A stretch of DNA of 64,000 nt from Pirellulales bacterium (GCA_035532215.1 DATKRK010000359.1:5198-69197); one strand, 5' to 3'; positions 7,543 through 57,777 are shown, counted from the first letter of the stretch. Translations and numbers: made by a program. The notes: a model not told the origin generated them from the sequence alone.

Positions 7543-7614
7543 CGTGGAGTTCCCCTTTGCCGCCGTTGCCTCAATTCGAACTGCGTTCCTTTTTCTCGTC
7601 CGCTGGTCCCTTGT

Positions 7615-7798
7615 CTGCCGCCAGCTTTAGCTGGTGGTAGGCAGGCATCCCGAAAACCTTGTCTTCTCCCGCCGGCTTCAGCCGGCCTTCTCAACTTTGG
7701 GTCATTCTGGCGCCAGGCAATCGCGAAGCCCGGCTGAAGCCGGCTGGAAAAACAAATCAACTGCGCTCTCCAACCACCAGCTAAAGCGGGCGGCAGAC
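7615..7798. repeat. 184-bp nested inverted-repeat element
   Basis: The outer arms are 7615-7638 'tctgccgccagctttagctggtgg' and 7775-7798 (23/24 complementary). The inner arms are 7671-7688 and 7730-7748 ('ccggcttcagccgg' / 'ccggctgaagccgg'). Confidence 0.85.
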
Positions 7799-11511: not shown

Positions 11512-11668
11512 ACAGTAGGGCAGACATTCTTGTCTGCCCTTGCCGAGCAAACAGTAGGGCAGGCATTCTTGTCTGCCCTTTGGCCCGCGGGGCGCGATGC
11601 CAACCGTTGGCGGTTCCGAGGCGGCAAACGTTTTCGCGACTGGGCAGGCAGGAATGCCTGCCCTACTG
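11512..11668. repeat. three copies of the palindromic unit 'cagtagggcag(a/g)cattcttgtctgccc'
   Basis: Direct copies lie at 11512-11541 and 11551-11580 (39-bp period, 1 mismatch). An inverted variant lies at 11642-11668. Each unit is itself a hairpin (gggcagaca..tgtctgccc). Confidence 0.9.
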
Positions 11669-14157: not shown

Positions 14158-14484
14158 ATGTGGGGTTGGAAAAGCGTCGAGCGGCTGATCGAGCCCAGCC
14201 TTTCTTTTAACCGGGCGAAAGAGGCGCTGTTGGCGCAGGGATTTCGGATCCACACTTCGAATCCGCATCACGCGGTGTTCAAGAGCGCTGGGACCGAGAA
14301 CCCCTGGACGACTCTGGCCCCGAATGGCGAAAATGTGCCGATCGAACTTGCTCTTGCCGAAACGCACGGCGGCCTGTATCTGCATCTGCGATACGAGACG
14401 TTCTGTCTTTTCGACACGGGCGATCTCAATCGTTTCGCCGACGACCTTGCGGCTGGCTTGGCGGCGCAAACGAGCGGGACGTAG
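14158..14484 (+). CDS. small hypothetical protein
   Basis: 108-aa ORF preceded by 'gagaggagtaaagcc' (SD-like). Mixed, protein-like composition. No family recognised. Confidence 0.55.
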   Translation: MWGWKSVERLIEPSLSFNRAKEALLAQGFRIHTSNPHHAVFKSAGTENPWTTLAPNGENVPIELALAETHGGLYLHLRYETFCLFDTGDLNRFADDLAAGLAAQTSGT

Positions 14485-14628
14485 GTCAGGCTTTCCAGCC
14501 TGACAGAAACCGGATCGGACGCACCATCCAAACCGCAATGGGGCGCCAACGCGCCCCCCATGCCTAGATCCGCGACGATATGCAACGCGGGTTGCCTGAA
14601 ACGTGTCAGGCTGGAAAGCCTGACCCAC
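14481..14628. repeat. inverted pair of the palindromic unit 'gtcaggctttccagcctgac'
   Basis: Units lie at 14481-14504 and 14603-14628, in the spacer between convergent genes. Confidence 0.85.
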
Positions 14629-14651
14629 GTGCCGCGGCCGCTGATTGCACT

Positions 14652-16143: not shown

Positions 16144-16203
16144 CTAACCCGAAGCGTCAGCGAGGCGGAACGGCGCCACAGCCTCGCTGACGCTTCGGGT
16201 TAG
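16144..16203. repeat. hairpin repeat 'ctaacccgaagcgtcagcgagg' (diverged copy at 36204..36267)
   Basis: A 22-bp perfect stem (16144-16165 / 16182-16203) lies immediately downstream of hemP and could act as a terminator. Confidence 0.85.
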
Positions 16204-16231: not shown

Positions 16232-16321
16232 CTGTAGGGAACGCCCTCCGCGGCGTTCCGGGAAGCGCGAATCGGCGCGATTCCCGGGTGTACGGCATGC
16301 CACGGAGGGCGTGCCCTACAG
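16232..16321. repeat. inverted repeat 'ctgtaggg(a/c)acgccctccg(c/t)gg'
   Basis: The arms at 16232-16259 and 16294-16321 are imperfectly complementary. Confidence 0.8.
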
Positions 16322-16541: not shown

Positions 16542-17963
16542 ATGGTGAATCGCAAAACGGCGGACGCGGCTCTCCCGGCGGCGCCCGAGGAAACGACGCT
16601 CCAAGCATCTTCGACGGCCGCGACGCCGACGGAGTCGTCCCCGCGAAAGCCGGGCGCGCGGCCGCACGCCGCCCCGCCCGCCAAAGGCCGCTGGTGGCCG
16701 ACGCTGCTCATGCTGAGCTGTTTGAGCGCGGCCGTTTACTTTTCGTTGCCGTGGCTGCCCAAGCTGATCGCGCTCAGCGGCGCCGGCCGCGCCGGAGACA
16801 AAGTCGCCAAGCCGCGCGAGCGCGTCGTGCCAGTGGTGGCCGCCGCCGCGCGCCGCGCCGACATGGATTTGTATCTCAACGGCCTGGGCACGGTGACGGC
16901 TTTCAATACGGTCACGATCCGCAGCCGCGTCGAAGGCGAACTCATTCGCGTAGCCTTCACCGAAGGGCAGATGGTCAAACAGGGAGACTTGCTGGCCGAG
17001 ATCGATCCCCGGCCGTTCGAAGTGCAATTGTCGCAGGCCCAAGGCCAACTGATGAAGGACAAAGCCGCCTCCGAAGTGGCCCAACTCAATCTCGCGCGCT
17101 ACAATGAATTGCTGACCACGCGTTCGGTGACGCCCCAGCAGATCGACGAGCAAACGGCCTTGGTCGACCAGAGCGAGGGCGCCATCCAGATCGACCAGGC
17201 GCAAATCGACCATGTCAAGCTGCAGCTCACTTACTGCAAAATCGTCGCGCCGGTGAGCGGGCGGATCGGCTTGGGGCTGGTCGATCCGGGCAATATCGTG
17301 CGGGCCAACGAGCCGGGCGGCATCGCCGTGATCACGCAAGTGCAGCCGATCGCCGTGGTGTTCACCATTCCGCAGGACGAAATCTCGCGCGTGCAGGGGA
17401 AGCTGCACGCAGGCCGCACCTTGTCGGTCGAGACGTACGACCGCAACTTCAAGATCCGGCTGGCCACGGGCAAGCTGCACGCCATCGATAACCAGGTCGA
17501 CACCACGACCGGCACGTTGCGGCTCAAGGCCGTGTTCGACAACCAGGACGAGCTGCTGTTTCCCAATCAGTTCGTCAACGCGCGGCTGTTGGTCGACGTC
17601 AAGCGCGACGCCACGCTCGTGCCCGGCGCCGCCGTGCAGCGCGGCCCCGACTCGAACTTCGTCTACGTCGTCAAGGACGACGAGACGGTCGAGTTGCGCA
17701 AGGTCGAAATCGGCCCGGTGGAAGGCGCCGAAGTGGCCATCGAAAGCGGCCTGACGCCCGGCGAAGTCGTCGTCACCGACGGCGTCGACAAGCTGCAGCC
17801 GGGCGCCAAAGTCGCCTTGCGCGAGCGAAACGCCGATGGCGCCGCCACGGCCTCGATCTCGGAATCAGCGTCTCCCGCCGAAACCGAATCGCCGTCTGAC
17901 CGAACCGCCGTGCGCGGCGATGGCGCCAAAACAACGACCGCACAGGCGAATTCGCGACCATGA
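16542..17963 (+). CDS. mdtA: RND efflux periplasmic adaptor (MdtA-like)
   Basis: '[60 protein letters not shown]' closely parallels E. coli MdtA. I moved the start to the ATG at 16542. The stop overlaps the next gene's start by 4 bp. Confidence 0.93.
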
Positions 17964-20900
17964 GTCCCTCCCGGCCTTTCATTCTGCGGCCGGTCGCGAC
18001 GGTGCTGATAATGGTCGCCATTCTGTTGGCCGGGGCCGTGGCCTACCGGCAACTGCCCGTTTCTGCCTTGCCCCAGGTCGATTACCCCACGATCCAGGTC
18101 GTCACGTTCTATCCGGGCGCCAGTCCCGAGGTGATGGCCTCGTCGGTCACGGCGCCGCTGGAACGGCAATTCGGCCAGGTCCCCGGCCTCACGCAGATGA
18201 CCTCCAGCAGTTCCGAAGGCTGCTCGGTCATCACGCTCCGCTTTGCGCTCGAACTCGACATCGACGTCGCCGAGCAGCAGGTGCAGGCGGCGATCAACGC
18301 GGCGGGTACGTTTCTGCCGCCCGATCTACCCAACCCGCCGATCTACAGCAAAACGAACCCGGCCGACTCGCCGATTCTGACGCTGGCCCTGTCGAGCGAA
18401 ACGCTGCCGCTCTCGAAAGTGCAAGACCTGGCCGACACGCGGCTGGCGCAAAAAATCTCGCAGCTTTCGGGCGTGGGCATGGTCAGTCTCAGCGGCGGGC
18501 AAAAGCCGGCGATTCGCATCCAGGCCAATCCCACCTCGCTGTCGGCATTGGGCATGAACCTGGAAGATCTGCGGATGGCGCTCACGCAGGCCAGCGTGAA
18601 CCAGGCCAAGGGCAGCTTCGACGGCGACCGCCAGGCCTTCACCATCGGCGCCAACGACCAGGTGCTCACCAGCGAGCAGTATCGGCAATTGATCGTGGGC
18701 TACCGCAACGACGCCCCGATCAAGCTCTCGGACGTGGCCGACGTGATCGACGGCGCCGAGAACGAGCGGCAGGCCGCCTGGATGAACGATTCGCCGGCGG
18801 TGATTCTCAACATTCAGCGGCAGCCGGGCGCCAACATCATCGAGGTCGTCGATCGTATCAAGTCGCTGTTGCCGCAACTGCGGGCTTCGTTGCCGCCGGC
18901 GATTTCCGTCGAGATCTTGACCGACCGTACCGTAACGATTCGCGCTTCGGTCGAAGACGTGCAGTTCGAGTTGCTGCTCACCATCGGCCTGGTCGTGCTG
19001 GTGATGTTCTTGTTTCTGCGCAACGTGGCGGCCACCTTCATCCCCAGCGTGGCCGTGCCGCTGTCGCTGGTGGGCACGTTCGGCGTGATGTATCTGCTCG
19101 ACTACAGTTTGAACAACCTGACGCTGATGGCGCTGACCATCTCCACGGGCTTCGTCGTCGACGATGCGATCGTGATGATCGAAAACATCATGCGCTACGT
19201 CGAAGAAGGCGAGCCGCCCTTGGAAGCCGCGCTGAAGGGCTCGGCCCAGATCGGCTTCACGATCGTTTCGCTCAGCGTCTCGCTGATCGCGGTGCTGATC
19301 CCGCTGTTATTCATGGGCGACGTCGTCGGGCGGCTGTTCCGCGAATTCGCAGTGACCTTGAGCGTGACGATCCTGGTATCGGCCATCGTCTCGCTGACCT
19401 TGACGCCCATGATGTGCGCCAAGCTGTTGCACCACGACCCTGCCGCGGGGCACGGCTGGCTTTATCGCGGCTCGGAGTGGGCTTTCGAGGCGGTGATCTG
19501 GCTCTACGGCAAGACGCTGGGCTGGGTGCTGCGGTTTCAGACGCTGACGCTCTTGGTTGCCCTGGCCACGCTGGCCGCCACCGTCTACCTGTACTTCGTC
19601 GCGCCCAAGGGCTTCTTTCCGGTGCAGGACACGGGCGTCATCATGGGCATCTCCGAGGCGCCGCAGAGCGTTTCGTTCGCGGCCATGACCCGGCGTCAGC
19701 GGGCCTTGAATCGGGCGATCCTGACCGATCCCGCGGTCGAAAGCCTGTCGAGCTTCATCGGCATCGACGGCACGAACGTCACGGCCAACAGCGGGCGGAT
19801 TCAGATCAATCTCAAACCGCTGGAAGAACGCCGGATCACGGCCAGCGAAGTCATCCGCCGCTTGCAGCCCAAGCTGGCGGACGTGCCGGGCATCACGCTC
19901 TACATGCAGCCAGTGCAGGACCTGACGGTCGAGACGCGCGTCAGCCGCACGCAGTATCAATACAGCTTGGAAGACCCCGACGCCGACGAGTTGGGCGAGT
20001 GGGCGCCGAAGTTCGTGAACAAGCTCGCGTCGCTGCCCCAGCTTCGCGACGTCGCCAGCGACCAGCAGACTTCGGGCCTGGAAACGCGCGTCGTGATCGA
20101 TCGCGACACGGCCAGCCGACTGGGCGTCACGCCGCAGATGATCGACGACGCGTTGTACGATGCCTTCGGGCAGCGGCAGATTTCGATCCTGTTCACGCAG
20201 GTCAATCAGTACCGCGTGGTGCTGGAGGTCAAGCCCGACTTCAAGAACGAGCCTCGCGACCTGAGCCAGATTTATATTCGCCCGCCCGGCGGCGGCAAAA
20301 CGCCGCTGGCCGCGCTGGCCCGCATCGAGCAAACCACGGCGCCCTTGGCGGTGAACCGGCAGGGACAGTTTCCGGTGGTCACGGTGTCGTTCAATCTGGC
20401 GCCGGGCGTTTCGCTGGGCGAGGCGGTCGAAGCGATCTCGGCCGCCAAGCGCGAACTCGACATGCCGCCGAGCATCCAGGCCGGTTTTCAAGGCGCCGCC
20501 GAAGCGTTTCAAGGGTCGCTCAAGAATACGCCGCTGTTGATTCTAGCCGCATTGGTCACCGTGTATATCGTGCTGGGCGTATTGTACGAAAGCTACATTC
20601 ACCCAATCACGATTCTTTCCACGCTGCCTTCGGCCGGCGTCGGGGCGTTGGCGGCCTTGCTGTGGTACAAGAGCGACTTGGACGTGATCGCGCTGATCGG
20701 CATCATTCTGCTGATCGGCATCGTCAAGAAAAACGCGATCATGATGATCGACTTCGCGCTCGAAGCGCAGCGCACTGAAGGCAAGAGCCCGACCGACGCG
20801 ATTTACGAAGCCTGCCTGCTGCGCTTCCGCCCGATCATGATGACCACGCTGGCCGCGCTGTTGGGCGGCGTGCCGCTCGCGTTTGGCGGCGGCGTCGGCT

Positions 20901-21139
20901 CGGAACTGCGCAAGCCGCTGGGCGTCACGATCATCGGCGGCTTGATCTTCAGCCAGATGCTGACGCTGTACACCACGCCGGTGATTTACCTGTGGTTCGA
21001 TCGGCTGGGAAAACGATTTGGCCAAGGTAGCAGGCACACTCCGTGTGCCGTAGCCAACCCTGCGATTGAACTGCAGCGCAAGGCCGGCGACGGCACACGG
21101 AGTGTGCCTGCTACGATTCATCGCGACGGCCCGATATGA
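17960..21139 (+). CDS. mdtB: RND efflux permease (MdtB-like) with a repeat-encoded C-terminal extension
   Basis: 1059-aa ORF. It has typical AcrB/MdtB blocks ('[21 protein letters not shown]', '[16 protein letters not shown]'). The last ~30 aa are encoded by the palindromic repeat at 21027..21114. An ATGA overlap joins it to the next gene. Confidence 0.95.
21027..21114. repeat. palindromic repeat 'gtagcaggcacactccgtgtgccgt' embedded in the mdtB 3' end
   Basis: The arms at 21027-21051 and 21090-21114 are perfectly complementary over 25 nt. The whole unit lies inside the mdtB reading frame. Confidence 0.9.
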
Positions 21140-24100
21140 CCCTCTCCGAGCCGTTCATCCATCGCCCGGTGGGCACGACGCTGTTGACGGCGGCGATCAT
21201 GCTGGCCGGCGCGATCGCCTACTTTCTGCTGCCGGTGTCGCCGCTGCCACAGGTCGATTTTCCCACGATCGAAGTCACGGCCATGCTGCCCGGCGCCAAC
21301 CCCGAGACAATGGCTTCGGCGGTGGCCACGCCGCTGGAACGGCAGTTCGGGCGGATTGCTGGCATTACGGAGATGACCTCGACCAGCTACCTGGGCATGT
21401 CGCAGATCACGATTCAGTTCGAGTTGGATCGCGACATCGACGCCGCCGCTCGCGACGTGCAGGCCGCGATCAACGCCGCCCGCGGGCGCTTGCCGCCGAA
21501 CCTGCCGAGCAATCCGACCTATCGCAAGATGAACCCGGCCGACGTGGCGATCATGCTTTTGACGCTGACCAGCGACAGCCACCCCAAGGCCCGGATGTAC
21601 GACGCGGCGGCGACGATTTTGCAACAAAAGTTGTCGCAAATTCCCGGCGTAGGACAGGTGCGAATCGGCGGCGGCGCGGCGCCGGCCGTGCGCGTCGATC
21701 TCAATCCGACGATCTTGCATAACATGGGGATCGGCCTGGAAGACGTCCGCAACATGCTCGCGGCCGCCAACGCCAATCGGCCCAAGGGGCAAATCGCCGA
21801 CGACACGCGGGCCTGGTCGATCAGCACGACCGATCAGTTGCTCACGGCTAAAGAGTACCGGCCGCTGGTAGTGGCCTATCGCAACGGCGCCCCGGTGCGG
21901 CTGGCCGACGTGGCGGCGATCGACGATTCGGTGGAAGACCTGCGGGCCTTCGGCCAATACGACGGCAAGCCGGCGATCACGATCATCATCTACCGCCAGC
22001 CAGGCGCCAACATCATCGACGCGGTCGACCGCATCCGGGCCTTGTTGCCGCAGCTCGACGCCCAAATCCCCGCCCACATGGAGCTTGCGATCGCGCTCGA
22101 CCGCTCGGCCACGATCCGGGCCTCGGTGGAAGAAGTGCAATTCACGCTGATGATCTCGGTCGGGCTGGTGATTCTGGTGGTGTTCCTGTTTTTGCGCGAT
22201 TGGCGGGCCACGCTGATCCCCAGCATCGCTGTGCCGGTCTCGCTGGTGGGCACGTTCGGCGTGATGTACCTGGCCGGTTACAGCATCGACAACCTCTCGC
22301 TGATGGCCTTGACCGTGGCCACGGGCTTTGTCGTCGACGACGCGATCGTGGTCATCGAGAACATCTCGCGACACTTGGAAGCGGGCGAATCGCCGCTGGC
22401 CGCATCGATTGCGGGCGCCAAGGAGATCGGCTTCACGGTCGTCTCGATCAGCATCTCGCTGGTGGCCGTGTTCATTCCGCTGTTGTTGATGGACGGCATC
22501 ATCGGGCGGCTGTTTCGCGAGTTCGCCGTGACGCTTTCGGTGGCCGTCGGCGTGTCGCTGGTCGTCTCGCTGACGACCACGCCGATGATGTGCGCGTTGA
22601 TGCTCAAGTCGAAGGGCCAGACGCGGCACGGCCGGCTGTTCGGCTTCGGCGAGCGCGTGTTCGACCTCATGCTGGCCGTTTACGAAACGACGCTCGGCTG
22701 GGTGCTGCGGCGCCAGGCGCTGACGATGCTGGTGACGCTGGCCACGATCGGCTTTACGGTTTATCTGTACGTGATCGTGCCCAAGGGCTTCTTCCCGCAG
22801 CAAGACGCCAGCCGGCTGGTGGGCAATATCGTGGCCGATCAGGACACCTCGTTCCAGGCTATGCAGTCGATCATCCAGCGTTTCGCCGCAGCCGTCAGCG
22901 CCGACCCGGCGGTTACCGGAGTGACGGCCTATTCCGGCGGTTATAGCGGGGCGGCGAACGTGGCCCGGATGTTTGCCAGTTTGCAGCCGGTCGAAGAACG
23001 AGGTCTGAGCGCCGACGAGGTGATCGCCCGCATCCGCGGCAATCTTTCGCACATCGCAGGCGCCAATTTGTACTTGCAGCCCACGCAAGACTTGCGCGTC
23101 GGAGGGCGGTTGAGCAGCGCGCAATATCAATACACGCTCCGCGGAGACACGCTCGGCGAGCTGAACGAATGGAGCCCCAAGCTGCTCGGCGCCATGCGCG
23201 GCATTCCGGGCATGGTCGACGTCAACAGCGACCAGCAGAACAAGGGGCTGGAGGCCCGCTTGACGATCGACCGCCTAGCCGCGGCCAGGCTGGGCGTCAC
23301 GCTGGCAGACATCGATAACACGCTCTACGACGCTTTCGGCCAGCGGCAGGTATCGACCATCTACAAGCCGCTCAATCAGTACCGCGTGGTGATGGAAGTC
23401 GAACCGGCCTTCTGGCAGAATCCCGACGCCTTGCGACACATCTACGTGCGAGGGCCGACCGAGGCGCAGATTCCCTTGAGCGCGCTCTACCACTATTCTT
23501 CGGAAACGACCCCGCTGTCGGTGAACCACTCGGGGCAATTCCCCTCGGTGACGATCTCGTTCAATCTCGAACCGGGCACGTCGCTATCCGACGTCGTGCC
23601 GAAGATCGAAGACGCGGCGCTCAAGTTGGGGCTGCCCGAAACGATCCAGGGCAGCTTTCAAGGCACGGCCCAGGCGTTTCAAGATTCGCTGCGGAACCAG
23701 CCGCTACTGATTCTGGCGGCGCTGATCAGCGTGTACATCGTGCTGGGCGCGCTGTACGAAAGCTACATTCACCCGATCACGATCCTTTCCACGCTCCCTT
23801 CCGCCGGCGTCGGCGCGCTGGTGGCCTTGATGCTCTGCGGCGCCGAGTTGAACGTGATGGGCCTGATCGGCATCATCTTGTTGATCGGCATCGTCAAGAA
23901 AAACGCGATCATGATGATCGACTTCGCCCTGGAAGCCGAGCGCAAGCAGGGCAAGTCGCCCGAAGAGGCGATCTTCGAAGCCTGCCTGCTGCGTTTCCGC
24001 CCGATCACGATGACCACCATGGCCGCGCTGTTGGGCGGGCTGCCGCTGGCCTTGGGCACGGGCGCCGGATCGGAATTGCGCCGGCCGCTGGGCATTGCCA

Positions 24101-24225
24101 TCGTCGGCGGCTTGATCTTCAGCCAGATGCTGACGTTGTACACCACGCCGGTCGTCTACTTGTATCTCGACCGCTTTCGCCTCTGGTGCGCCTGGCGGCG
24201 GAACAGAGGGCCCTTGAACGCTTGA
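21136..24225 (+). CDS. mdtC: RND efflux permease (MdtC-like)
   Basis: 1029-aa ORF paralogous to the previous gene ('[21 protein letters not shown]', '[16 protein letters not shown]'). Confidence 0.95.
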
Positions 24226-38271: not shown

Positions 38272-38479
38272 GGGAGTAGACGGAAGGTAGTAGGTAGTAG
38301 GCGGTAGGTAGTAGGCGGTAGGCTGGGAAAAAATCCCCTCTCCCAAGGTGAGAGGGGGTTTAGGATAAGGCAGAACCGGCGTTCCGCCAAGCGGCTGGCA
38401 ACCGTAGCGATCCGTCTACCCGGCTGCAACCTCGGCAGGCATTCCCCCTCCTACCGTCTACTTCCTACCGCCTACCTCC
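38272..38479. repeat. 'gtaggcggtagg' tandem/inverted repeats around a 'cccctctc...gagagggg' hairpin
   Basis: The left cluster (38272-38323) holds tandem 'gtagtaggcggtagg'. The right cluster (38447-38479) is its complement ('cctaccgcctacc'). The central 8-bp hairpin is at 38335-38357. Confidence 0.8.
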
Positions 38480-46128: not shown

Positions 46129-46263
46129 AGATCACGAAAACGCGAAAGAGCGAAAGCACGAAAGGGAGTTCCCCTCGCGGGCGAAGCTGGCGGCAAGTAT
46201 CTCAATCTATTTGACTTAACTCTGCTTTTTTCGCGTTTTCGTCATTTCGCGTTTTCGTGATCT
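46129..46263. repeat. second copy of the 'gatcacgaaaacgcgaaag' element
   Basis: The left arm is at 46129-46167 and the right arm at 46226-46263 ('ttttcgcgttttcgtcatttcgcgttttcgtgatc'). It has the same motif and size as 12868..13009. Confidence 0.85.
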
Positions 46264-49434: not shown

Positions 49435-50124
49435 GTGACTCAAGATCCTGAAGAATCACAGAAGGTCGACGTACGGAGGCCGTCCCCGCGGCCGCCAAAT
49501 GGCGCCGGGCGCGTTCACGCCCCAGTGCGCCGCAGCTACGATGAACTGGCGGCGAGCTACGACACGCGCTGGCGGCATTATATCGAGGCCACTTCGGCCT
49601 TGGCGATCGAAGCGATCGCCCCCGAGGCTGACGGTCGCGCGCTGAACATCGCCTGTGGCACGGGCGAACTCGAGCGGCGGCTGCACGAACTGCGGCCGCA
49701 GCTCCGGCTGACGGGGACCGATTTGAGCCCGAATATGCTGCGCCGCGCCGCCGCGAAAGAGCTTGGCGCTGAATGGCTGGCCGCGGTGGCGGCGCATCTG
49801 CCGCTGGCTGACGCTGCGTTCGATTACGTGCTGTGCGTCAACGCCTTTCATTACTTTCGCCTGCCGAGCGACTCGCTGGCCGAAATGCGGCGCGTGCTGC
49901 GGCCCGGCGGTACGCTGGTGCTGGTCGATTGGTGCGACGATTACCTCTCGTGCAAACTGTGCAGCGTCTGGCTGCGGCTGACCGACCGCGCGTTTTACCG
50001 CAACTATTCGCTCGCTGGCTGCCGGGCACAACTCGAACAAGCCGGCTTTCGCATCGACTCCGCAGAGCGGCGCCGCATCAATTGGCTCTGGGGGCTGATG
50101 CGATTCGTCTGCCGCGTTCCGTAG
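49435..50124 (+). CDS. class I SAM-dependent methyltransferase
   Basis: 'ALNIACGTGEL' (motif I), 'FDYVLCVNAFHYF' and 'LRPGGTLVLVDW'. GTG start as given in the track. Confidence 0.85.
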   Translation: MTQDPEESQKVDVRRPSPRPPNGAGRVHAPVRRSYDELAASYDTRWRHYIEATSALAIEAIAPEADGRALNIACGTGELERRLHELRPQLRLTGTDLSPNMLRRAAAKELGAEWLAAVAAHLPLADAAFDYVLCVNAFHYFRLPSDSLAEMRRVLRPGGTLVLVDWCDDYLSCKLCSVWLRLTDRAFYRNYSLAGCRAQLEQAGFRIDSAERRRINWLWGLMRFVCRVP

Positions 50125-50177
50125 TAGAAGCGGCATCCCTGCCGCTTTCGAATACGCGGCAGGGATGCCGCGTCTAC
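50124..50177. repeat. 22-bp-stem hairpin 'gtaga(a/c)gcggcatccctgccgc'
   Basis: The stem is 50124-50145 / 50156-50177 with one mismatch. It lies immediately after the methyltransferase stop. A near-identical copy is at 54389..54442. Confidence 0.9.
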
Positions 50178-54388: not shown

Positions 54389-54442
54389 GTAGACGCGGCA
54401 TCCCTGCCGCTTTCGAACACGCGGCAGGGATGCCGCGTCTAC
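54389..54442. repeat. 22-bp-stem hairpin, second copy
   Basis: The perfect stem is 54389-54410 / 54421-54442 with loop 'tttcgaacac'. It starts 8 bp after the LRR gene stop. Confidence 0.9.
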
Positions 54443-57721: not shown

Positions 57722-57777
57722 AAAGTCGCTTTTCGCTCCGCGAAAAGACGTTTTTTCGCGGAGCGAAAAGCGACTTT
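57722..57777. repeat. 25-bp perfect hairpin 'aaagtcgcttttcgctccgcgaaaa'
   Basis: The stem is 57722-57746 / 57753-57777 with a 6-nt loop. It lies between the L,D-transpeptidase gene and pyrE. Confidence 0.9.

Follow-up and report, generated by a model that had tools for sequence, protein, structure and literature searches.

In a 64,000-nucleotide stretch of DNA from a Pirellulales metagenome-assembled genome (MAG; GCA_035532215.1, DATKRK010000359.1:5198-69197), henceforth the window, by which we mean this whole stretch at its full length, the 3' end of the mdtB gene contains an 88-nt palindrome that is read in frame as part of the C-terminal tail of the MdtB permease. Our analysis makes it quite probable that this palindrome is a lineage-specific, in-frame insertion of two repetitive extragenic palindromic (REP) sequences, arranged as a REP doublet forming a hairpin (REPIN), into a permissive segment of the mdtB tail, whereby the ATGA stop/start overlap with the downstream mdtC gene was kept and the element has likely persisted as a near-neutral passenger. 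The features on which this reading turns are the following.

17960-21139, plus strand: mdtB/muxB-type resistance-nodulation-division (RND) permease gene, 1059 aa (NCBIfam); the profile match ends at residue 1020
21027-21114, no strand assigned: putative REPIN-type doublet, 88 nt, two inverted GTAG-tagged REPs and a spacer, predicted to fold as one long hairpin
21027-21051, plus strand: left REP, GTAG-CA-GGCACAC-TCC-GTGTGCC-GT, a stem-loop in its own right (stem of 7 bp, loop of 3 nt), translated in mdtB as SRHTPCAV
21052-21089, no strand assigned: doublet spacer, 38 nt, partly self-complementary
21090-21114, minus strand: right REP, the 25-mer of the left REP on the opposite strand; GTRSVPAT in the mdtB frame
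21136-21139, plus strand: ATGA stop/start overlap of mdtB and mdtC, ancestral; also in the orthologous loci L002, L004 and L005

A preliminary description of this DNA had placed a REP-like unit with perfect 25-nt arms inside the mdtB open reading frame (ORF), had assigned to the arms the two peptides listed above and had located the end of mdtB in the ATGA overlap with mdtC, all of which is borne out by a repeat search together with translation. The two 25-nt arms are perfect inverted repeats, and pairing reaches beyond them to arms of 38 nt that are 89% complementary and enclose a 12-nt loop. The 25-mer occurs at these two sites only in the 64 kb of the window and has no match in 100 shuffles of it; likewise, the window holds no second copy of the 88-nt element, which is recognized as a repeat through its copies in other genomes. 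A single REP arm forms a 7-bp stem of -11.3 kcal/mol, whereas the 88-nt element alone folds at -69.6 kcal/mol with over 98% pairing of its arms across the ensemble, and the RNA from 21000 to 21160, which the preliminary description had singled out for folding, yields a very stable predicted structure of -88.9 kcal/mol (z = -8.9). The hairpin ends 21 nt 5' of the mdtC ATG, in agreement with the roughly 20 nt estimated earlier, and 22 nt before the mdtB stop. No 5' tag ranks higher or is more enriched than GTAG among the perfect 7-bp hairpins of the window. A search of the element against Rfam returned nothing at gathering thresholds, its sub-threshold matches being those of a generic long hairpin (eukaryotic miRNA precursors, on both strands), and we found neither a U-tract terminator at the element nor a promoter-like site nearby.

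The evidence that the palindrome belongs to a mobile family comes from other genomes. When the degenerate pattern GTAGNNGGCACACNNNGTGTGCC was scanned over one genome per bacterial or archaeal species, it was found at at least 119 loci with at least 171 matches, where about 17 would be expected by chance on a uniform-composition estimate. The five positions that the pattern leaves unspecified are non-random among the matches listed, the linker being TA or CA in 149 of 171 and the loop TCC in 128 of 171; the exact 23-mer of the window is the commonest variant (61 of the same 171). From these matches emerges a consensus consisting of an A-rich 5' flank, GTAG-YA-GGCACAC-TCC-GTGTGCC and a 3' GT (G in 98%, T in 86%), to which both arms of the mdtB element conform. 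REPs that face each other (+,-) outnumber diverging ones by 28 pairs, spaced at 51-229 nt, to 3 among the matches listed, an excess which indicates that the doublet architecture seen in mdtB is typical of the family. The spacer at 21052-21089 finds no match in the REP loci fetched from other genomes. To judge from its sequence, the element is a pair of GTAG-tagged REPs, that is, a REPIN-type doublet, and the REP-like nature first suggested for it is thereby upheld.

The distribution of this family is broad. By their titles, 94 of the at least 119 loci derive from Planctomycetota (including Pirellulales, Gemmataceae, Planctomycetaceae, Kuenenia and Tepidisphaeraceae) and 22 from Poribacteria, the remaining three comprising one each from Verrucomicrobiales, Alcaligenaceae and an unclassified bacterium; several genomes supply multiple loci, and one locus (L064) holds 8 copies in 8 kb. 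Described REP types are mostly species- or genus-specific, so that a nearly identical 23-mer across Planctomycetota and into Poribacteria is unusual for a REP type. Family members lie overwhelmingly outside genes and behave as selfish DNA does, although the test of location is crude, given that the REP loci carry no gene annotation. Twelve long open frames with a REP at their 3' end emerged as candidates from the 171 sites; ten were submitted to Pfam and one was confirmed as a gene, while most long open frames that run over family members elsewhere were discarded, as they lack Pfam domains and look like spurious GC-rich frames. The confirmed gene encodes a Poribacteria Type ISP restriction enzyme (L103:2790-5930, minus strand, OY282383.1) whose C-terminal 8 residues (VVGTLRVP) and stop codon are supplied by the REP, and it is thus a second capture of the GGCACAC REP type at a gene 3' end. 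We also noticed same-orientation tandem arrays of the REP at four loci (L028, L043, L064 and L083), in which the unit recurs at a constant interval of some 40-48 nt and the stretch between REPs is conserved; L083 carries four copies at 40 nt and L064 three at 48 nt, and L028 has in addition REP pairs separated by about 41 and about 80 nt.

Comparison with orthologous genes then speaks for an insertion in mdtB. The four nearest MdtB orthologues (94, 93, 91 and 85% identity, 1030-1038 aa) all lack the palindrome; they match the window protein through ...LGKRFG, or close to it, and diverge beyond. The peptides that the REP can encode occur in none of 119 MdtB orthologues, so that an alignment of orthologues, which had been proposed as a way of seeing whether repeat and tail are absent elsewhere, finds the repeat missing from the four closest relatives and the tail missing from all. 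The insertion site lies past the end of the MdtB profile match at residue 1020. Counted from TPVIY, the tails of 118 orthologues span 19-71 residues with a median of 32, as compared with 54 in the window, a length that only 5 of the 118 exceed, and they show essentially no sequence conservation. Such variability implies that the C-terminal tail is under very weak constraint and constitutes a permissive site. The extra length of the tail had earlier been gauged against the paralog MdtC, for which orthologous MdtB proteins are the preferable baseline; the continuation of MdtB past the conserved block, given then as about 40 residues, is in fact 44, and that of MdtC is 16 rather than about 14. 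According to the standard 12-helix topology of RND permeases, which we take to apply here, the tail that follows the last transmembrane helix of MdtB should be cytoplasmic. The ATGA overlap with mdtC is kept in three of the four nearest orthologues, and we regard it as ancestral for that reason.

Two of the MdtB relatives have peculiarities of their own. Downstream of the gene for the orthologue with 93% identity (P0003), the next gene is not mdtC but one of the EamA family (L003:9093-10009), so that either the paired permease is absent at this locus in that relative or P0003 is a separate paralogue. Another protein (P0004, 1461 aa, 73% identity to MdtB) has an MdtB tail that runs into an MdtC-like N-terminus, ...GRLVNFSASFIERPVATTLL..., and represents an apparent MdtB-MdtC fusion, or else a frameshifted gene call, at the overlap junction.

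The arithmetic of the reading frame is consistent with a filter on which insertions survive. Read forward, the 88-nt element contains stop codons in two of its three frames, in one case the TAG that forms part of the GTAG tag, and mdtB runs through it in the remaining, open frame. When the 88 nt are excised in silico, mdtB is thrown into a frame that runs through mdtC for over 170 codons without a stop, whereas excision of 90 or 87 nt restores an MdtB of 1029-1030 aa that retains the ATGA end and finishes in ...LGKRFGQIHRDGPI, a tail about as long as that of the 93% orthologue. The net insertion can hence be reconstructed as follows, the 90 nt being the palindrome plus two flanking bases.

21026-21115, plus strand: inferred net insertion of 90 nt, or 30 codons; its removal gives a 1029-aa MdtB with the original ATGA end

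The earlier estimate that the repeat adds roughly 30 residues without a stop thus becomes exactly 30 codons net. As to how this came about, we propose that a REPIN-type doublet of the widespread Planctomycetota GTAG REP family would have entered the 3'-terminal part of the mdtB coding sequence in a recent ancestor of the Pirellulales lineage that carries the window, and that it would have landed in the hypervariable C-terminal tail, a segment tolerant of added residues. A gain of 90 nt in the sole open frame would then have lengthened MdtB by 30 residues and left the ancestral ATGA end in place, while insertions that shifted the frame would have wrecked the MdtB terminus, sent ribosomes over the mdtC start out of frame and been purged. 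The element would ride in the mRNA as a very stable autonomous hairpin that translating ribosomes unwind. The open frame and the retained overlap can therefore be ascribed to the survival of frame-keeping insertions only, and not to a designed function. The preliminary description had seen in them a REP-like insertion that stayed open and preserved translational coupling; the frame and the ATGA are indeed kept, yet what might be read as a function looks to us like a filter of survivorship.

Several observations weigh against this account and should be set beside it. No empty-site allele turned up in a metagenome scan that used the window-specific right flank (0 matches), for which reason the boundaries of the insertion and the figure of 90 nt are a reconstruction; the corresponding protein cluster at 90% identity has as its only other members a second filled allele and an unrelated piece of 44 aa. 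The tail differs from that of the 94% orthologue beyond the insertion as well. Moreover, the source genome contributes a single doublet of the GGCACAC type in 64 kb, and no cognate REP-associated tyrosine transposase (RAYT) flanked by the GGCACAC REP was found among the loci sampled. Both arms are still perfect and identical to the consensus, a condition that suits a recent insertion but would equally suit selection that keeps the hairpin. The sole slippery heptamer of the operon, described below, lies just upstream of the hairpin, a coincidence of about 1-2%. Finally, the element is no more than probably a near-neutral passenger.

If the element were not a mere passenger, the alternative that deserves most attention, improbable as we judge it, is recruitment of the hairpin for post-transcriptional control of the operon, with MdtC being tuned relative to MdtB, be it by slowing ribosomes before re-initiation at the ATGA, by blocking 3'-to-5' decay of the mdtA-mdtB mRNA or by offering a site to RNase III; a modulation of the MdtB:MdtC ratio had also been raised in the preliminary description. 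A very stable structure placed 21 nt upstream of the mdtC ATG, arms that are perfectly preserved and a predicted lower helix (21016-23/21128-35, p about 0.5-0.6) that takes in the 8 nt preceding the mdtC AUG all lend it some appeal, and an unequal output would suit E. coli MdtBC, which is reported to be a B2C trimer. The predicted accessibility of the mdtC start speaks otherwise. Partition-function folding of 20940-21260 gives a mean unpaired probability of the mdtC initiation region of 0.53 (-20 to -1) and 0.62 (ATG to +14) with the element and of 0.61 and 0.59, respectively, once the 90 nt are removed, and three orthologous junctions without the element score 0.20-0.45 and 0.43-0.52, so that accessibility is unchanged by the element and at least equal to that of the orthologues lacking it. 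Occlusion of the mdtC start by the hairpin was rejected on these grounds, the model being one of an autonomous hairpin that is predicted to leave the start unsequestered. Orthologues at 85-94% identity do without the element, which is carried by a single lineage; it has no terminator-like tail, and its family is, as seen above, overwhelmingly extragenic and selfish-like. The REPs between malE and malF, to which Newbury and colleagues reportedly traced in 1987 a differential mRNA stability within the operon, offer a partial likeness, in that a stable REP hairpin between cistrons could shield the upstream mRNA from 3' exonucleases, but the mal REPs are intercistronic and untranslated whereas the mdtB hairpin is translated and would be melted by each ribosome. 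It counts in favor of regulation that E. coli REPs are described as stabilizing upstream mRNA and affecting translation in the part of PMC12306157 that cites Liang 2015, but there the lowering of translation is tied to REPs located less than 16 nt 3' of the stop codon (Liang, Rudd & Deutscher 2015, cited in PMC12306157). Like these down-regulating REPs, the mdtB hairpin occupies a place in the mRNA very near where an ORF ends; the geometry is nevertheless reversed, since the hairpin is contained in the ORF, leaving 22 nt to the stop, and a terminating ribosome has already passed it. The proposal that the hairpin tunes the MdtB:MdtC ratio hence finds no support, given unchanged accessibility, the lack of terminator or promoter signals and the restriction to one lineage, and nothing in the data calls for kinetic effects, conceivable as they are, such as pausing, exonuclease protection after processing or RNase III action on the predicted perfect 25-bp duplex.

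A narrower version of regulation, which we hold to be highly improbable, brings in two further features.

21007-21013, plus strand: in-frame X XXY YYZ heptamer G GGA AAA, 13 nt upstream of the hairpin; its relevance is speculative
21028-21030, plus strand: TAG within the GTAG tag of the REP, the first -1-frame stop past the heptamer (KTIWPR*)

Heptamer and hairpin together might form a cassette for -1 programmed frameshifting that lowers MdtC relative to MdtB: shifted ribosomes would terminate six codons on at the TAG of the REP's GTAG, release a protein with the short, orthologue-like tail ...LGKTIWPR and never reach the ATGA. With its 2564 codons, mdtABC has no other X XXY YYZ heptamer in frame, and this one is absent near the 3' end in all four orthologues (L002-L005), which encode the same residues with other codons. 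That such a heptamer should fall in frame in the 7 codons preceding the hairpin has a chance of about 1.6%, and the codon-usage probability of this spelling of L-G-K is about 1% (GGA is rare, with 9 of 183 Gly codons), figures that describe one event and are not to be multiplied. The rapid closure of the -1 frame, after 6 codons, fits as well, and the predicted lower helix would bring structure to within 2-6 nt of the heptamer. That helix is however weak (p about 0.5-0.6) and encloses an internal loop of 3 x 13 nt, the signal was noticed post hoc in a single lineage, its absence from L002-L005 means that it is unconserved, and programmed frameshifting is rare in ordinary cellular genes. Furthermore, the main stem stands 13 nt away instead of the 5-8 nt usual for stimulatory structures, and G_GG.A_AA.A is rated inefficient in E. 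coli (PMC4066793). Were REPIN and heptamer nonetheless to act as a makeshift -1 frameshift or ribosome-pausing device, a domesticated repeat that sets MdtB above MdtC, which we again think most doubtful, some ribosomes would make short-tailed MdtB and skip re-initiation at mdtC, thereby providing the excess of MdtB that a B2C pump needs. Still less credit is due to an artefact, that is, an assembly chimera or a sequencing error hiding an earlier stop such that MdtB would not be extended at all. The source is a MAG, and repeats are classic sites of misassembly, but the 1059-aa protein is present on contigs of several assemblies and sources; a contig from another sample (L125) is 99.86% identical over 7.2 kb with an identical element, and in the compared stretch the window is matched by L001 at all but 2 positions and by L125 at all but 6, with no difference from 20486 onward. 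Both flanks of the element are colinear with orthologous mdtB-mdtC junctions, and the open frame ends exactly at the ancestral ATGA. An orthologue sharing the tail or an earlier stop concealed by error had been named as what would overturn the insertion; the tail is found in no orthologue, and independent assemblies agree on a sequence with no hidden stop. As for a local origin by duplication and inversion inside a fast-evolving tail, with no mobile element involved, the hypervariability of the tail and a flanking sequence that is also unlike that of the nearest orthologue are compatible with it, and it would still strike us as next to impossible: the 25-nt arms are those of a family present at at least 119 loci in other genera, other families and a second phylum, inclusive of the GTAG and the GT, and this identity effectively refutes it.

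The in-frame insertion of a REP doublet that we favor has precedents. The Rickettsia palindromic elements (RPEs), said to have been reported by Ogata and colleagues in 2000, are reportedly selfish palindromes that sit in frame in protein-coding genes. They resemble the mdtB element as selfish palindromes tolerated in frame at a permissive site of a protein; RPE-1, in turn, is said to be longer and of a different family (RPE-4/6 reportedly being of the CGTC type) and RPEs to occupy many genes of one genome, whereas the GGCACAC REP has one intragenic copy here and one REP-derived C-terminus in the Poribacteria gene. RPEs are mentioned in the work that established the REP superfamilies tagged with GTAG and with CGTC and recorded their presence in the PVC group, Planctomycetes included (Di Nocera, De Gregorio & Rocco 2013, PMC3733652). 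The mdtB element has in common with GTAG REPs and their dimers (PMC3733652) and with REPINs (Bertels & Rainey 2011, PMC3116915) a GC-rich stem-loop with an unpaired 5' GTAG, and its family likewise shares with them opposite-orientation pairs that fold as a larger hairpin and a mostly intergenic location; what sets it apart is its own sequence, GGCACAC-TCC-GTGTGCC, nearly unchanged across the phylum and in Poribacteria, which had no match in the text and supplementary material of PMC3733652 that were examined nor in open-access full texts.

Over half of the intragenic GTAG REPs in that survey are dimers or grouped repeats that encode 20-30 residues, and about 10% are located at ORF ends, those at the C-terminus being judged unlikely to alter function (PMC3733652); in Opitutus terrae, intragenic REPs are found at the very C-terminus (PMC3733652, Additional file 3). 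The REP-decorated proteins of Opitutus terrae, Thauera and others (PMC3733652) thus carry in-frame REP dimers of 20-30 residues as MdtB does, but here the host is an RND permease, no efflux or RND gene appearing in the intragenic-REP list of PMC3733652, and a 4-nt stop/start overlap lies just downstream. Because of this overlap, the frame in mdtB had to be kept for the next gene as well. An index-free HMMER search with the 40-residue tail against 1.8 billion protein representatives found no other real protein with the doublet: its four matches were three unrelated tandem-repeat proteins and one short ORF across four tandem REPs, single 8-residue arms being too short to reach significance in such a search. 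In-frame REP insertion is therefore already known, and what is new here are the host gene, the phylum and the constraint imposed by the stop/start overlap.

These findings illustrate what a selfish palindrome requires in order to survive in coding sequence, namely a tolerant site, an open frame and a length that keeps the stop/start overlap. For annotation, they suggest that odd C-terminal extensions of planctomycete proteins may be translated REPs and not new domains. The mdtB insertion is a clean but ordinary example that opens no long-standing question; from the viewpoint of mobile elements, the 23-nt REP that is nearly unchanged across Planctomycetota and Poribacteria is more interesting than the insertion itself.

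Mobilization of the GGCACAC family by a RAYT-type enzyme may be presumed from the GTAG tag and the general REP literature. A search by tblastn with E. coli RayT, which gave weak hits, and with a motif found no RAYT gene in the window or at the at least 119 REP loci other than one ORF at L025:2425-2952 (minus strand). This ORF is RAYT-like (NF047646, E = 3.5e-22, 78.8 bits, under the cutoff of 80) and has no match in Pfam and PDB sequence searches; it belongs to a family of at least 1339 proteins at E <= 1e-10, of about 177 aa, many of them from Planctomycetota, which several sources name RayT. Its lineage was rejected as the partner of the GGCACAC REP on account of its different flanking repeats: the repeats bordering the L025 gene, and those at 17 loci encoding three related RAYT proteins, are of other, non-GTAG double-hairpin kinds, GGACGC-GGA-GCGTCC and CGTTCCCACGC-AGAG-CGTGGGAACG (L025; L127-L143), and are absent from the window. 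Most members of this RAYT-like family are missed by Pfam, and one member occurs in both European Nucleotide Archive (ENA) samples of the window's contig. The number of repeat units downstream of the RAYT gene varies by assembly, L127 and L129 having one fewer than L128, L130 and L133.

With regard to the gene neighborhood, the ORF at 17960-21139 scores 1563 bits against the MdtB equivalog model NF007798, just under its cutoff of 1584, and passes the subfamily model NF033617 with 1329.5 bits (cutoff 1250). Its neighbors, listed next, are mdtA-like and mdtC-like, and the three together fit an operon of the mdtABC/muxABC type.

16542-17963, plus strand: mdtA/muxA-type periplasmic adaptor gene (NCBIfam), which has an ATGA overlap with mdtB as well
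21136-24225, plus strand: mdtC-type RND permease gene, 1029 aa (NCBIfam)

Elsewhere in the window there are further palindromes with the GTAG tag. At least five types of GTAG-tagged palindrome occur in the 64 kb, all but the mdtB element being intergenic, and as context they mark a REP-rich genome.

11515-11666, no strand assigned: GTAG-tagged palindrome of a different sequence type, intergenic
14474-14635, no strand assigned: palindrome with the GTAG tag, of different type, located between two convergent genes and sharing 11 nt with the end of the called ORF on its upstream side
16234-16319, no strand assigned: palindrome of the form GTAG...CTAC, upstream of mdtA between divergently oriented genes
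50124-50177, no strand assigned: doublet with the GTAG tag that represents a third type (GCGGCA-TCCC-TGCCGC), lying where two ORFs end convergently
54389-54442, no strand assigned: second copy of the 50124-type doublet, intergenic

Long inverted repeats that are not of the GTAG-hairpin type are located at 7613-7798, 16144-16203, 38290-38475, 46129-46263 and 57722-57777. The one at 16144-16203 is a perfect palindrome with 23-nt arms upstream of mdtA, that at 38290-38475 is an inverted tandem-repeat region rich in GTAGG, and that at 57722-57777 is a palindrome with 28-nt arms and zero spacer.

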